Source: Escherichia coli (GTDB lineage Bacteria; Pseudomonadota; Gammaproteobacteria; Enterobacterales; Enterobacteriaceae). From it: a stretch of 64,000 nucleotides of DNA. Position numbers: made by a program. Below, piece by piece: positions 27,001-36,000 of the stretch; position 1 is the stretch's first letter; each line of letters begins with the position of its first letter. The stretch is taken from assembly GCF_001677475.2 (NCBI RefSeq), contig NZ_CP012498.1; one strand, 5' to 3'.

Positions 27001-30000
27001 GATCATCAATAACGTGAGAGAAAACCGCCAGGTGACCGTCCCGGCTGAACTGCTGGCGTCCCTGATTCAGACCGCCGAACAGGCACTGTGGAAACGTGAA
27101 TGGGCCGCCCGTGATTACGGCCTTGCCGTCCCGGAATGCGTTACCCGCCGTCAGGCGGTGGTTAATCAGGCCCGCATCCTGCTGAAAAACAACACACACG
27201 AAAACGACTGATGTTATCGCCGCCTTCGGGCGGCGATTCAGGGAGACCATTAATCATGAACAAAACGCTGAATGCACTGGTTTGTCGCCACGCCCGTAAC
27301 CTGCTGCTGGCGCAGGGCTGGCCGGAAGAGACGGATATTGAACAACTGAATCCGCACTATCCGGGCTGGATCAGCATTTATGTGCGACTGGATGTATCCC
27401 GGCTGGCGACGTTACTTATCAGCCGCCATGATGGCGTGCTGCCGCCGGTCCTGGCGTCTGCCATGCAAAAACTGACCGGAACCGTGGCGGAACTTGTACT
27501 GTCCGGCAGCCAGTGGCAGGCGCTGCCGGTACTTCCGGCAGACGGAACGCAGGTGTCTTTCCCGTATGCCGGCGAATGGCTGGCAGAAGACGAAATTAGG
27601 GCAGTTCTTGATGCGGTACGCAATGCAGTACGAAGCATCTGTTACCAGGTGGCAGACGATGCGCGGCGTATCCGGGCGGCGCTGACCACCACCGGTCAGA
27701 CGTTGCTGACCCGCCAGACGCGCCGCTTTCGTCTGGTTGTGAAGGAAAGCGATTACCCCTGCTGGCTTGATGAAGATGACGAAAATCTGCCCGTGGTGCT
27801 CGATGCCATTCTGAACCGTGGCGCCCGTTTTTCCTCTGTGGAAATGTACCTGGTCTGTGAGTGTGTGGAGCATATCCTGGCCAGTGGTCTGGTCTGTGAT
27901 GTGCTGCGTATACCGGATGAACCGTCCCGTCGCTGGTTTGACCGGGATATTCTGCGGGAGGTTGTTCTGGAGGCACGGGATGAAATCCGCAGCATGGCGG
28001 ATGCCCTGGCAAAAATCCGGAAATGATGACGCTGGCGGGGAAAAATCTCCGCCTTTTCCTGCCGGTCCCCGGAAAGAGCAAAAGGATGTCGCCGCAGGCT
28101 CCGCTTTACCCGGCCATGCAGGGCATGGCCTTGTGGGATTTCAGTTATGTGGCCTCAGCGTCGTGTGCGGGCTGTGCCGTGCCTCCATCTTAGCCGGGCT
28201 GGCGGGGATGCAAGGGTAAAATGCACGCGGCGGTCACCCGGTCCCTCCTTCCCGTCTGCCGTGATTTTCCGGTCGTTCACCCGCTCAGATTTCGCGGTCT
28301 CACCCTCCAACTCCCGCCAGCCGTGTGCGTCAGGCTGCGGCTTCCCTTGCGCCCCTGCATCCCCGCCTTATCGCCCGGCTTTTATGGAGGCACGGCACCG
28401 CCCGGTGTCGCGGAATATGTGAACAATGGAGGAATACATCATGCAGTATGCGAAACCTGTCACCCTGAATGTTGAAGAGTGCGACCGCCTTTCTTTTCTG
28501 CCTTACCTGTTTGGTAACGATTTTCTGTATGCCGAGGCGTATGTGTACGCTCTGGCACAAAAAATGATGCCGGAATATCAGGGAGGCTTCTGGCATTTCA
28601 TCCGCCTGCCGGACGGTGGCGGTTACATGATGCCGGATGGCGACCGTTTTCATCTGGTCAACGGTGAAAACTGGTTTGACCGCACTGTGAGTGCTGATGC
28701 CGCAGGTATCATTCTGACGTCTCTTGTGATTAACCGCCAGTTGTGGCTGTACCACGACAGCGGGGATGCGGGGCTGACACACCTGTACCGGATGCGTGAT
28801 GCGCAGTTGTGGAGCCACATCGAATTTCACCCCGAATGCAACGCGATTTACGCAGCACTGGACTGATTACCGGACGGGGCGGCAATGCCGCCCCTGTAAA
28901 GGAGGCGAAGAAAAATGAACATCAGTACGGAAACCCGCGAAATTCTGCGTAAATACAAAGCCGTGATTAATGCGCGGCGTCGTGATATGGGGCAGAAACC
29001 GCTCACCACTGCGCAGATTGTTGATGAAATCTGCGATTTTGTGGCGAATCAGCAGGCTGTTTTCCTGGGCGGTCACTACATCTTACAGGCCAGCAGAAAC
29101 AGGTGATACAGGGCAGGCGGTGGAGGCCGCCTGTCAGCCCGCGCGAAAACCCCTGGCAGGCTGGCGCCTGCCGGAAGGGAAGCGGGCCACGCTGGCGCGT
29201 CGCCCGTTACCCTTCCCGTTTGTGATGTGTCTGACTCAGGAGTGTTTCTTTCTTATGTTATGGAACTGTTCCTGATGTTGTTGTTCCTTTATCTGCTGCT
29301 CTGATTCTGACTACTGCAGTGTTGTCCTGTCTGCCTGTCGGGTAGCAGCGGCACATTGCTGCGCCGCCGCCCCCTAAGAACGGAGCGTGCGAGTTTCCCC
29401 GCACTCCGCTCAAGCCTTTATAAGTGCTTTCGGTGAGCACCGGCTTCCCTGCTGTGTAACTGTCGGTGGCCGTTCGGATGTAACAGCTCGAGATTGGTCA
29501 GTTCGTCACTACTGCCCATAACTTTCCTGATCCGGTGATGTATATTCCATCCGGTCTGGTTGGTTATGGGTTGTCCGCACTGCGGGCAGTGTTTCCCCTG
29601 CCTCTTCCAGAGTTGAACTACTGTCTTCATCTTCTTTGATTTGCCTTTCCAGATTAGATCCAGACGACGTTCAAAGTAGATTTCCATTCCGGGGGTGTAT
29701 GGTGTTGCTTCGCCTTTGATTTTTATATGGCGCTTTATCGGTGTTTCCATTGCCCGGAAGAGAGTCAGAATTTTCCCTTCCGGGGTTATGGCTTTAAAGA
29801 TCCAGCGCCTGTCTTCAAAGGAGAAGTATCGTCCGGCGATCCACCGCAATCCTTTCCGGGGATGCCGTCTTACACACCATCGCCATATAGCTCGCCAGAT
29901 TTGGGTGTCGACATAATTAAATGTTTCTTTCGCCACGACGTGTCGGTGATAGGTAGCCCATCCCCGGATCACCGGGTTTAGCTGGCCTATCAGTTTCCAT

Positions 30001-33000: not shown

Positions 33001-36000
33001 TGCGGCGTAAAAGAGCTCTAAGATACCGCACAGATTCCGGTGGTGGAGTCCATGCCTCAGGCTCTTTAAGGGAGCCATAACAAGCCAGCATCCAGGCATC
33101 GACTTTGTCATTCTTGGTCAGGATATTCATCCCTCTGGCAAATTCCCTTGTACGGTGAGGATTGGCTAAAGAAATTCTGGCGCCAGCAAAGTGAAGGCCA
33201 TAAGCCAGCGGTTCATGATATACCCCAGTGGCTTCCATGATGATATGAACTTCGCCCAGTTCACAGGATTGCTTCTTAAGCCACTCTGTCACGACTTTAG
33301 CCGCATCAGCGGTATTTTTTAGCTTACGAGTTTTGATCCTCCCTTTGATGCCCTCCCGTAAGAGACATAGATCAAGAGTGTTTTTACTGACATCAATACC
33401 TAATTGATACATTGGCATTTTTTCTCCTTTCACATAACCATCACGCCAATTTGTCTTGTTCATGCAGAGTCTTAGCTCTTGGCAACCGTTCAATGTTAAT
33501 GCTGGCGTGAAAGGTGAAGCAGAGGACTATAGCTGTTGACGAAGGTTATTACCTTAGATGATGGGGTAGGTTCTCTCCGCTTCATGCGATGGTAGCTAAT
33601 CATCGCTCGTTGATTACATACAAGATGATGGGGCTGAAAACCTGAGAGAGGAGAAAGCAGGATGAGTACCCGAAATATCCACGTTAACACCGCGTCGTAC
33701 ACGCTTCTTGTTGCCGGGAAGAAAAAAAACACCGGGGAAGAGTGGGACGTCCTGGAATTCAGCAGCCTGACTGAGCTGAAAAAATATCGCAAAAGCCACC
33801 CGGAAAAGATGGCCTTCAGTTATAGCTACGCGCTCAGTCAGGGTGTGGATAAGCAGTTCCGCCATATCAACATTGCGGAAGCCGATCACTTCAAACAGTT
33901 CCTGCGTCAGATTAAGCGTGCCGGCCTCGATATCCGGGCGATCTGCTGACCGGATGTGATGAATATCCCTCCTGATTGTTGCAATCTTGTTAACGGAGAT
34001 CGGGAGGGATGATATTAAGCGGAAAAAATTTTTATTAAATTTATTCTTTCATAAAGGAGTAGCTGTTATGCGATTAGCTTCCCGTTTTGGTCGGTATAAT
34101 TCCATCCGCCGTGAACGTCCTTTAACGGATGATGAATTAATGCAGTTCGTGCCTTCGGTATTTTCCGGTGATAAACATGAGTCCCGGAGTGAACGTTATA
34201 CGTATATTCCAACAATCAATATCATCAATAAGTTACGTGATGAAGGTTTCCAGCCATTCTTTGCCTGTCAGAGTCGGGTTCGTGATTTGGGACGTCGCGA
34301 ATACAGTAAACATATGTTACGTCTTCGCAGGGAAGGGAATATTAACGGGCAGGAAGTTCCTGAAATTATCCTGCTTAATTCACATGATGGTTCATCCAGT
34401 TATCAGATGATCCCCGGAATTTTTCGTTTTGTCTGCACAAATGGCCTGGTGTGCGGAAATAATTTTGGCGAAATCCGCGTTCCACATAAAGGTGATATTG
34501 TCGGGCAGGTTATCGAGGGAGCGTATGAAGTGCTCGGTGTTTTTGATAAGGTCACTGATAATATGGAGGCGATGAAAGAAATTCATCTTAACAGTGACGA
34601 GCAACATTTATTTGGCAGATCTGCACTGATGGTCAGGTATGAAGATGAAAATAAAACGCCAGTGACGCCTGAACAAATAATTACTCCCCGTCGTCGGGAA
34701 GATAAACAGAACGATCTCTGGACAACCTGTCAGCGGGTTCAGGAGAATATTATAAAAGGTGGATTGTCGGGGCGAAGTGCCTCCGGTAAAAATACCAGGA
34801 CAAGAGCCATTACAGGTATTGATGGTGATATCCGAATCAACAAGGCGTTATGGGTGATTGCCGAACAGTTCAGAAAGTGGAAATCATGATAATATAAGTA
34901 AAGCCCCGAAAATTTTCGGGGCTTTACTTATATTATCATTCTTCGGCATCGCTGTGTCGTCTGATATACCTCAATTCCATCAACCGGCTTTCCGGTTGTC
35001 TGTAAATATTGTGCCCGCGAAAAATGGTCTGGCAGGAGGCTGCGCAGTTACCGGGTATATATAAGATGGGTTCCCGCTTCGCGGGGCTTCGGCCAGTCAG
35101 TATTGTCACTCATATGGTATTTTTGTGTGTGGCCTTCCATGCCTCTTTTGCGGCATAACCGGTATCTGACAATGTCTGTAAGATTAATTGTTCTGCACGC
35201 TGTTAATTTCCGGAAGTGATTTCTTCGTGGCCGGAAGCCGGATACCTTTACTGCTTTTTATCCCGGTATAAATCCGGTAAACATCTGATGCGTAGGCAAG
35301 ACGTCTCTGGTTCTGGCGTTCGGTCTTCCTGAATCCGGCATTGTATGCACCAACGGCCTCCCAGGTGACGCCCCATTTTTTAAAGGCTATTGCCAGATAA
35401 TAAGCACCGGTATAAATGTTCATGCAGGGATCTGTTGTCAGATGTTCCGGCTTAATTCCGTAGCGGGCCAGTTCGTTAAAATGCTGGGAGTCTACCTGCA
35501 TCAGTCCGCTGCCATATCCCGTTACCGGATTAATACCGATGGCATTAACCCGGTAACGGGATTCTTTCCATGATATTGCTCTCAGTAAATCAGGATCTAT
35601 TTTGTAATCCCGGCCTGCAAGATCAAAGCAATCAGTGGCCTGGCAGATCTCATTTATAAACATCAGGCAGATGGCTAACATCCATTTTTTCATTTTTCCA
35701 CCTCTGGTGACTTTATCTGTAAATAATTTAACCCACTCCACAAAAAGGCTCAACAGGTTGGTGGTTCTCACCACCAAAAGCACCACACCCCACGCAAAAA
35801 CAAGTTTTTGCTGATTTGCGTTTAATATCATTGAGTTGTATTTGTGGATTTATATTGTTTAAATCTGATTTATTTAAAGCAGCGTCGTTAACGCAGCTAC
35901 AGCAACGCGCCGACACCGCTTTGTAGGGGTGGTACTAACTATTTTTATAAAAAATATTATTTTATATTAGGGGGGCGGCTAGCGGCGCGGTGTATTTTTT

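Follow-up and report, generated by a model that had tools for sequence, protein, structure and literature searches.

The leading region of an F-like conjugative plasmid of Escherichia coli lacks the module formed by ssb, yfjA, yfjB, psiB, psiA and hok, and carries a single Frpo-type repeat at the place where the F plasmid has this module between two such repeats. The plasmid was studied in a segment of 64 kb (contig NZ_CP012498.1; hereafter the window, to whose coordinates positions refer unless stated otherwise). We consider it highly probable that the module was removed by recombination between the repeats Frpo2 and Frpo1 and that the group II intron and the IS110-family element now residing there are separate insertions, acquired later and independently. 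In this scenario, a full-length ancestor would have possessed two direct Frpo-type repeat units bracketing the Frpo2-driven block (ssb, yfjA, yfjB, psiB, psiA and flm/hok), and an exchange between both units would have excised about 5.4 kb, leaving one unit (31679-32247 plus the CT-rich tract at 29262-29336) joined on its left to the sequence that preceded the ssb-proximal copy and on its right to ygeA-ygeB. The group II intron would then have inserted at the 5' edge of the surviving unit and the IS110 element at its 3' edge, as separate events without loss of adjacent sequence. The genes are absent, one repeat is left with flanks of different origin, both insertions are precise, and in other plasmids the deletion occurs independently of both elements. 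From these observations we infer that the change proceeded from the full-length to the compact layout by a RecA-type homologous exchange rather than by replication slippage between the repeats, and that deletion and insertions took place in the order given above.

Missing genes and the single repeat at the junction

The segment belongs to the F-like (MOBF/MPF_F) plasmids, as is evident from the nic sequence of its origin of transfer (oriT), the adjacent traM-traJ/FinP-traY-traA genes and the synteny of leading genes. Since the canonical F nic sequence sits on the minus strand, this is the transferred strand (T-strand), and therefore the sequence at lower coordinates arrives first in the recipient cell. 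The tra open reading frames (ORFs) follow collinearly from traM (36107) via traG and traT to traD, which is still open at the end of the window. The whole leading region (about 20.6-35.8 kb) lies inside the window, because it is bounded by stbB/parM on the left and by the nic site on the right. For comparison, the F locus (NC_002483, positions 50000-70000) was used, in which the leading region covers 53.8-66.2 kb. According to blastn and tblastn comparisons with F, the region is collinear from stbAB to oriT, with deletions and insertions only and with unchanged gene order. Methylase, klcA, ygeA, ygeB and orf169 are syntenic with F and R100 on the strand templated by the T-strand, and order and orientation in F (methylase, DUF1380, klcA, 63-amino acid (aa) ORF, repeat, ygeA, ygeB, orf169, nic, traM) are the same, with shared genes being 88-98% identical and the T-strand serving as template for all leading genes. 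The leading region had been called compact and rearranged in a preliminary description made from the sequence; compact it is, and rearranged it is not. Backbone identity to plasmids of PLSDB or to complete E. coli genomes reaches about 93-96% at best.

F proteins SSB, YfjA (DUF905), YfjB (ParB-like, 652 aa), PsiB, PsiA and Hok gave no tblastn match anywhere in the 64-kb window, and neither did PsiB, PsiA and Hok from R100. A six-frame search of the window with a Hok-motif regular expression revealed no Hok-like ORF, and no hok/sok RNA family was among its gathering-threshold Rfam matches, whereas F proteins encoded around the SSB, Psi and Hok genes match the window at 91-98% identity (tblastn). 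The absence of ssb, psiB, psiA and hok-type genes from the window, as described previously, is thus confirmed by protein searches, motif search and Rfam, and all items of the gene inventory given at that time for the interval from klcA to orf169 were recovered in place by Pfam, Rfam, NCBIfam and tblastn. Carriage of ssb, psiB, psiA and hok/flm is a typical but not an obligatory feature of F-like plasmids, and it is lacking in the window. When the region was aligned to the leading regions of F and R100, the module was missing at the repeat junction in both comparisons; in F, the absent part extends from about 7988 to 13562 of the locus.

As the window starts in an accessory region rich in insertion sequences (ISs) and ends in traD, part of the plasmid lies outside of it, and the ssb-hok genes might reside there. 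We judge this to be extremely improbable. The window contains the entire leading region in collinearity with F, and early expression of such genes needs proximity to oriT, the correct strand and an Frpo in front, of which the window has only one. Moreover, in the relative NZ_CP141738.1, a complete plasmid of the same layout (90,184 bp, typed as conjugative, with a full tra operon), all six genes are missing from the entire sequence, so that in relatives the genes were lost and not moved.

The GC-rich block noted previously (31679-32247; GC content 0.60 in 31001-32000) is the window's sole copy of an Frpo-type repeat. Two copies each are present in F, in pMTY2805_IncF (NZ_CP128952.1) and in pABW_A32a, and three in pEA18_1 of Escherichia albertii (NZ_CP117638.1). 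In F, one copy directly precedes ssb and the other one the 95-aa ORF. Frpo2 is described by Couturier et al. (2023; PMC9849209) as lying upstream of ssbF, yfjA, yfjB, psiB and psiA, and Frpo1, which is the original Frpo of Masai and Arai (1997), as lying upstream of ygeA and ygeB. Because these authors place ygeA and ygeB behind Frpo1, the 95-aa ORF and the DUF932 gene of the window are taken as ygeA and ygeB, gene names that follow the description of the F map in the same paper. The core of the repeat carries a perfect hairpin, CAAAAGTTTTTGCC...GGCAAAAACTTTTG, and for the T-strand (minus) DNA, folding gives an imperfect hairpin with a length of about 330 nucleotides (nt) and -121.3 kcal/mol (z = -6.9; none of 100 shuffled sequences was as stable). 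The complementary plus strand folds nearly as well (z = -5.9), and the fold alone cannot tell the strands apart, because both strands of a palindrome fold well. Homology to the two F copies (93.3% and 85.3% over about 432 bp), together with the T-strand hairpin, identifies the window repeat as a predicted single-stranded DNA promoter of the Frpo type. Inspection of the hairpin stem by eye gave no convincing placement of -35 and -10 boxes.

A 68-aa ORF in the Frpo core (32055-32315 in the window; 4706-4912 in L005, a compact plasmid with neither intron nor IS110) is annotated as hypothetical protein in RefSeq, whereas some GenBank records call it a single-stranded DNA-binding protein. The possibility that it is a remnant of SSB was considered and dismissed, as Pfam gave no hit for it even at E ≤ 1 and the tblastn search of the window with F SSB was negative; judged from its sequence, the SSB label is probably an annotation artefact. 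The last five codons of this ORF are replaced in the window by IS110 sequence, which results in an 86-aa fusion ORF.

In order to phase the junction, repeat units from F, pEA18_1, pMTY2805_IncF, compact plasmids and the window (ten sequences, mobile elements removed) were aligned, and 87 columns were found to distinguish the ssb-proximal copy on the Frpo2 side (X1) from the ygeA-proximal copy on the Frpo1 side (X2). In this alignment, a repeat unit consists of a CT-rich tract, a variable block of about 100-135 bp that exists as two alleles and a core of about 430 bp. Type A of the variable block occurs in F, and type B, which bears the target of the junction intron (intron B) at its own 5' edge, in the window, in X2 of pEA18_1 and in both X2 and X1 of pMTY2805_IncF. 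In the left flank of the window repeat, the majority of 29 diagnostic sites are of X1-type, turning to X2-type near the right end, and from there on X2-type prevails in the variable block (11 of 11 sites), in the core (42 of 44) and downstream of the core (3 of 3). The switch falls within the CT-rich tract, at about 29262-29290. The window therefore has a single junction copy with the left flank of X1 and the body and right flank of X2, as expected for a repeat-mediated deletion. In the compact plasmid pRHB14-C22_2 (CP057797.1), X1-type extends through the variable block and the switch to X2-type lies inside the core, where no mobile element is present. Its repeat is chimeric, a direct signature of a crossover, and its junction differs from that of the window; at least two independent events have therefore generated compact leading regions. 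Full-length relatives offer suitable substrates for such recombination, with repeats of 587 bp at 97.1% identity in pMTY2805_IncF and of about 555 bp at 89% in F.

Modules flanked by repeats can be gained as well as lost, and the compact form could be the older one in this lineage, the ssb-hok block being a cassette acquired elsewhere by a double crossover through the Frpo repeats. The ssb-proximal copy of pMTY2805_IncF is almost entirely X2-type, as would be expected if a compact plasmid had re-acquired the module by a crossover in the core, and Venturini et al. (2013; PMC3817090) preferred insertion for a 9.7-kb module of IncI-type. Such a history is nevertheless quite unlikely in our opinion: the module is present in F, in R100 and in nearly all of more than 5000 F-like matches, about 108 of which are compact, chimeric single repeats like that of pRHB14-C22_2 are most simply explained by exchange between two diverged resident copies, and the existence of at least two junction types among compact plasmids implies repeated events and not one old state.

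Several points weigh against a loss by recombination between Frpo2 and Frpo1. Its direction, loss as opposed to never having been gained, would rest on the distribution of the genes. No close full-length parent of the window plasmid was found in PLSDB or among complete E. coli genomes, and for this reason the crossover in the window cannot be placed more finely than 29262-32247; the switch in the CT-rich tract could stem from an exchange in a parent with homogenised copies, as in pMTY2805_IncF, or from a short-homology event. Also, hok/sok should select against deletants. Possibly, these escaped by arising during transfer or through a second addiction system, and the former route is attractive, if speculative, because a recipient in which the deletant arises may never have held hok mRNA.

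Frpo repeat units are mosaic across plasmids and appear, from their sequences, to undergo gene conversion. The X1 copy of pMTY2805_IncF (8099-8685) is 97% identical to its partner copy (13363-13949). The three copies of pEA18_1 lie at 6833-7262, 10112-10544 and 18765-19265, and this plasmid has extra leading genes for a DUF3560 protein and a SAM methyltransferase. The window repeat has small patches in common with X1 of the E. albertii plasmid; one of them is a flipped hairpin loop at 31839-31843 (GGAAC versus GTTCC).

Compact plasmids and the independence of both mobile elements

The occurrence of compact leading regions was studied with an in-silico query of 2747 bp (klcA, repeat, ygeA and ygeB) from which intron B and IS110 had been removed, and coverage of at least 80% at one place was required for a match. 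At least 87 PLSDB records, which come from E. coli, Shigella and Klebsiella, show the intron-free compact layout; most of those listed are devoid of IS110 too, and some carry it. An intron-bearing compact layout, with a span of about 11 kb, was seen in about 21 of the 25 PLSDB records listed, which amounts to about 108 compact records versus more than 5000 F-like matches. Where examined, compact plasmids were typed as conjugative. pAUSMDU00014361_01 (NZ_CP045828.1) and pRHB14-C22_2 are compact with neither element, and the stretch from klcA to ygeB measures only about 3.1 kb in them. Complete E. coli genomes with the intron-bearing compact layout include a plasmid of the O25b:H4-ST131 strain 2822 (NZ_CP103743.1); in this plasmid and in NZ_CP141738.1, intron B occupies the same site, with 97-98% identity across the intron. 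The compact plasmids pAUSMDU00014361_01, pRHB14-C22_2, NZ_CP141738.1, pEC648_1 (NZ_CP008715.1) and NZ_CP103743.1 share with the window the order klcA, 63-aa ORF, single Frpo, ygeA and ygeB without ssb-hok. Unlike the window, they keep the second DUF1380 gene, and pRHB14-C22_2 differs further by its crossover point and by a type-A variable block. A compact layout with intron B and with IS110 at the Frpo-ygeA junction was not found in PLSDB or among complete E. coli genomes, and the exact combination of the window (compact layout, intron B, IS110, loss of DUF1380 and a second intron carrying an IS21-family element) is absent from both collections.

Intron B is, by its sequence, a bacterial group II intron with an ORF for a reverse transcriptase-maturase-endonuclease, with GUGYG...AY ends and with an empty site in a relative. 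Read on the minus strand, it starts with GTGCGAC at 31678 and ends with CCCGAC at 29337. Rfam recognises the ribozyme at 29337-29413 (RF00029, 60.1 bits) and 31485-31634 (RF02012, 121.7 bits), and the intron-encoded protein (IEP; 29418-31085) comprises RVT_N, RVT_1, GIIM and HNH domains (TIGR04416, 1.2e-114). The empty site is found at X2 of pMTY2805_IncF (13360/13368), where the segments 13297-13360 (90.6% identical to window 29272-29335) and 13368-13931 (corresponding to window 31684-32247) are essentially contiguous; intron B is therefore a precise insertion. pMTY2805_IncF also bears intron B upstream of an intact ssb-yfjA-psiB block. In PLSDB, 983 records carry intron B at 95-99% identity, and Klebsiella accounts for about half of these. 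An intron of similar size (2,343 versus 2342 bp), likewise in the leading region, was reported for pHN7A8/FII-33 (Hawkey et al., 2022; PMC8765060), the likeness being one of size and location only. For the IncF33 backbone, a leading region with psiB/psiA, ssb and hok has been described (PMC10654068).

The element on the other side of the repeat can be assigned to the IS110 family from its sequence, as it encodes a transposase with DEDD and Transposase_20 domains and is inserted site-specifically without a long target duplication. The transposase ORF (32432-33493, probable ATG near 33416) matches DEDD_Tnp_IS110 and Transposase_20 of Pfam and NF033542 of NCBIfam. On its own strand, the element is bounded by CT at 33624-33623 and 32247-32246, and only this CT core is duplicated. 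Its target in the window is CCCCATCATCTGTTGAG, the F-type counterpart is CCCCATCATCTTTTGAG, and plasmids without intron and IS have the uninterrupted site CCCCATCAT-CT-GTTGAG. The sequences flanking the element are contiguous in F (13994/13992) and in L005, and nothing was lost beside it. Flanks of IS110 without a deletion scar, together with the genes being located just outside the window, had been named in the preliminary description as speaking against its own reading, and it is the former that we find. The same IS110 element is present at the same Frpo1-ygeA junction in 76 PLSDB records, among them pABW_A32a, in which ssb, yfjA, psiB and hok are retained, and in pEA18_1 it occupies the corresponding site of another Frpo copy.

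The intron and IS110 are placed exactly where the module would be, which had previously been seen as consistent with deletion or replacement. One of them, or both, might have brought about the loss: by deleting adjacent sequence on insertion, by replacing the module, or through recombination between two copies of one element. In pEA18_1, the intron is found at the X2 copy of the repeat instead and IS110 at a further Frpo copy, so that a parent with two copies in direct orientation is conceivable; the IS110 match of this plasmid ends at window position 33510, about 110 bp before the end of the element. A causal role of the elements is, however, very unlikely and, as a necessary cause, largely refuted. 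In the window both have intact, contiguous flanks, L005 shows the same compact junction structure with neither of them, and at least 87 compact records lack the intron. Conversely, intron B is present in 983 plasmids, about 21 of the intron-bearing records listed being compact, IS110 occupies the identical site in pABW_A32a with ssb-hok intact, and the crossover of pRHB14-C22_2 lies inside the Frpo core without any mobile element. Recombination between two intron copies was considered and is not needed, since the intron-free L005 has the same junction structure. The deletion is therefore independent of intron and IS110, because the compact layout occurs elsewhere without them and each of them is also found in plasmids that retain the module; of the previous reading, a deletion of the ssb-psiB-psiA-hok module is supported, the elements as its cause are not.

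IS110 resembles the bridge RNA-guided insertion sequences of the IS621 type (NF033542) in its DEDD and Transposase_20 domains, in that no terminal inverted repeats were seen and in the CT core on both sides. In its 5' non-coding region, CCCCATCATCT at 33566-33556 equals the 11-nt left target flank, including the CT core, at 33633-33623, and the 9-nt sequence TCAACAGCT at 33539-33531 is reverse-complementary to the right junction AGCTGTTGA (32240-32250), with a small hairpin (AAGG...CCTT) between the CCCCATCATCT and TCAACAGCT copies. With guides assigned by sequence match, this region looks like the loop with which a bridge RNA would bind its target, the target here being the conserved 3' end of Frpo. 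Rfam searches over the IS110 and Frpo region at E ≤ 1 yielded no bridge-RNA or Frpo-like family, only an intron fragment and a chance miRNA match. In a promoter and terminator scan of 31600-34100, directed at a possible block by IS110 of read-through from Frpo into ygeA, counts were at or below shuffle expectation, with one terminator-like site on the plus strand at 33300-33313. In pEC648_1, an IS110-family element (4369-5731) is inserted elsewhere inside the Frpo repeat, at about the equivalent of window position 31912. The Frpo repeat thus seems to be targeted by more than one element of the IS110 type.

Beyond being a passive substrate for recombination, the Frpo unit might be a preferred landing pad for RNA-guided elements specialised in plasmid leading regions, an idea that we regard as unlikely on the whole. 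The guides of IS110 appear to fit the conserved 3' end of Frpo, the 5' edge of one Frpo allele serves the intron as its homing site, and the strand on which both introns of the leading region have their sense orientation, the transferred one, would suit insertion into conjugative single-stranded DNA; natural plasmids may be trimming their leading region to klcA and Frpo1-ygeAB and escaping hok/sok addiction, perhaps as deletants arise in the course of transfer. If this were true, IS110 between Frpo1 and ygeA could tune establishment.

Comparison with published plasmids and expected consequences

Compared to F, the window lacks one repeat copy, ssb, yfjA, yfjB, psiB, psiA, flm/hok and the second DUF1380 gene, and it has the other allele of the variable block, two group II introns and elements of the IS21 and IS110 families. 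Couturier et al. (2023; PMC9849209) pointed out that in F a recombination of Frpo1 with Frpo2 would remove the 5 kb or so that lie between them and that this is probably prevented by flmAB. They suggested that flm/hok guards F against such a loss, and more than 100 sequenced plasmids show that the deletion does occur and persists. An equivalent of IncI-type has been described by Venturini et al. (2013; PMC3817090): in pO111-CRL115, when compared to pO26-CRL125, an ssb/psiB/psiA/ardA module of 9.7 kb is absent and a single chimeric Frpo is left, and a difference in transfer frequency between both plasmids was not detected in the laboratory. This pair differs from the present case by its IncI-type module, its IncZ replicon and the presence of three repeats, and the authors interpreted it as the insertion of a possibly mobile module. 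While the deletion was thus predictable from published work and the IncI-type equivalent is known, the exact combination in the window was not found in the collections searched.

In experiments with F, deletion of Frpo2 or ssb leaves transfer unaffected, and deletion of Frpo1 or ygeA lowers it (PMC9849209). From these data, the plasmid would be expected to be proficient in transfer, as ygeA and ygeB are kept, and to have lost plasmid-encoded SSB, SOS inhibition and hok/sok addiction. Compact plasmids in general agree with the laboratory data in that Frpo2-driven genes are dispensable for transfer and ygeA/ygeB are kept. With IS110 in place, 1.4 kb lie between the Frpo hairpin and ygeA, and early expression of ygeA/ygeB from single-stranded DNA may be weaker as a result. 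The absence of genes for SSB, SOS inhibition and addiction reflects a structural variant that is common among IncF plasmids and attributed to the repeats, and neither an annotation problem nor damage by mobile elements. The Frpo unit collects intron and IS110 at fixed positions, which is useful for plasmid typing, for engineering and for the annotation of leading regions.

Feature map, second group II intron and neighbouring regions

Coordinates of features in the window and their correspondence to the F locus are given in Table 1.

Table 1. Features of the leading region and its surroundings, with corresponding positions in the F locus.
Feature	Window position	Strand	F locus position	Evidence or remark
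stbB/parM	19085-20487			left boundary landmark of leading region
Group II intron A	21114-25933	-		antisense at codon 24 of leading-region DNA methylase gene; RF00029 21114-21190, RF02012 25725-25873
Collinear block	25934-28908		4239-7223	collinear
klcA-type antirestriction gene	28426-28866	+		Pfam PF03230 (Antirestrict) 1.9e-26; 97.9% aa identity to F over 141 aa
Second DUF1380 gene			7224-7646	no window counterpart
Collinear block	28915-29261		7647-7987	collinear
63-aa ORF	28915-29106	+	7647-7838	tblastn, 95% aa identity
X1-side unique left flank	29107-29261	+		blastn, 93.7% to F 7647-7987
Stretch without ordinary F match	29262-31815
CT-rich tract	29262-29336	+		5' edge of repeat unit; 3' exon of intron B (read on minus strand)
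Group II intron B, 2342 nt	29337-31678	-		Rfam, Pfam, empty-site comparison
Variable block, type-B allele	31679-31815	+		5' exon side of intron B; alignment
Frpo-type repeat core	31816-32247	+ (functional strand: -, transferred)	13563-13994; 8175-8604	93.3%, before ygeA (Frpo1); 85.3%, before ssb (Frpo2)
IS110-family element, 1375 bp	32248-33622	-		32248-33621 without F counterpart
Collinear block	33622-36698		13992-17064	collinear
ygeA homologue, 95 aa	33662-33949	+		intact; 97.9% aa identity to F over 95 aa
ygeB homologue, DUF932, 273 aa	34068-34889	+		intact; Pfam PF06067 4.6e-52; 97.8% aa identity to F over 273 aa; longest ORF begins at TTG 33987
orf169-type lytic transglycosylase (SLT)	35184-~35786	-		Pfam SLT
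oriT nic sequence GTGGGGTGT/GGTGC	35793-35780	-		exact match to canonical F sequence GTGGGGTGTGGTGC
traJ 5' untranslated region/FinP pair	36581-36690			Rfam; antisense traG RNA also matched by Rfam

The second DUF1380 gene, located between klcA and the 63-aa ORF in F (7228-7650 of the locus), is precisely absent from the window, where the gap between both neighbours amounts to 48 bp (28867-28914). It is present in F, in R-type plasmids and in every compact relative examined. No obvious repeat or microhomology was noticed at the deletion junction.

Intron A cuts the leading-region methylase off from its first 24 codons, with amino acids 1-24 of the F methylase being encoded at 21043-21114 and amino acids 25-227 at 25934-26542. 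It is about 66% identical to intron B and is itself interrupted by an IS21-family element (21584-23993; istA 21677-23176, istB 23173-23928 with an IstB_IS21 match), which breaks the IEP ORF of the intron. In pEA18_1, intron A is found without this insert, and the overlap of 6 bp between the matches suggests that the IS21-family insertion made a 6-bp target duplication. The sense strand of either intron coincides with the transferred strand. Both introns are antisense to all genes of the leading region and therefore cannot be removed from leading-gene transcripts by splicing. Their orientation would fit reverse splicing into conjugative single-stranded DNA or into the lagging-strand template, although two introns are not statistically meaningful.

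Between traT and traD, two ORFs of about 200 aa (60605-61216 and 61597-62199) have no match in Pfam or NCBIfam; in F and R100, this interval contains one unnamed gene at most. To the left of the leading region (1-20000) lies an accessory region rich in IS3, which includes a toxin-antitoxin pair of the CopG/ParE type at 5106-5665 and, at about 8-15 kb, a stretch of low GC content (36-40%) in which a weak match to HEPN (RiboL-PSP; 9762-10592) and the gene for an Stv adhesin-like protein (13511-13987) are located; the gene for a DUF6710 protein follows (15490-16155). For the accessory region, the highest similarity is to large plasmids of 'Escherichia sp.' and E. coli from cattle and produce, at 98.5% identity across just 30% of the query, and plasmids of 'Escherichia sp.' and E. 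albertii have the nearest accessory regions.

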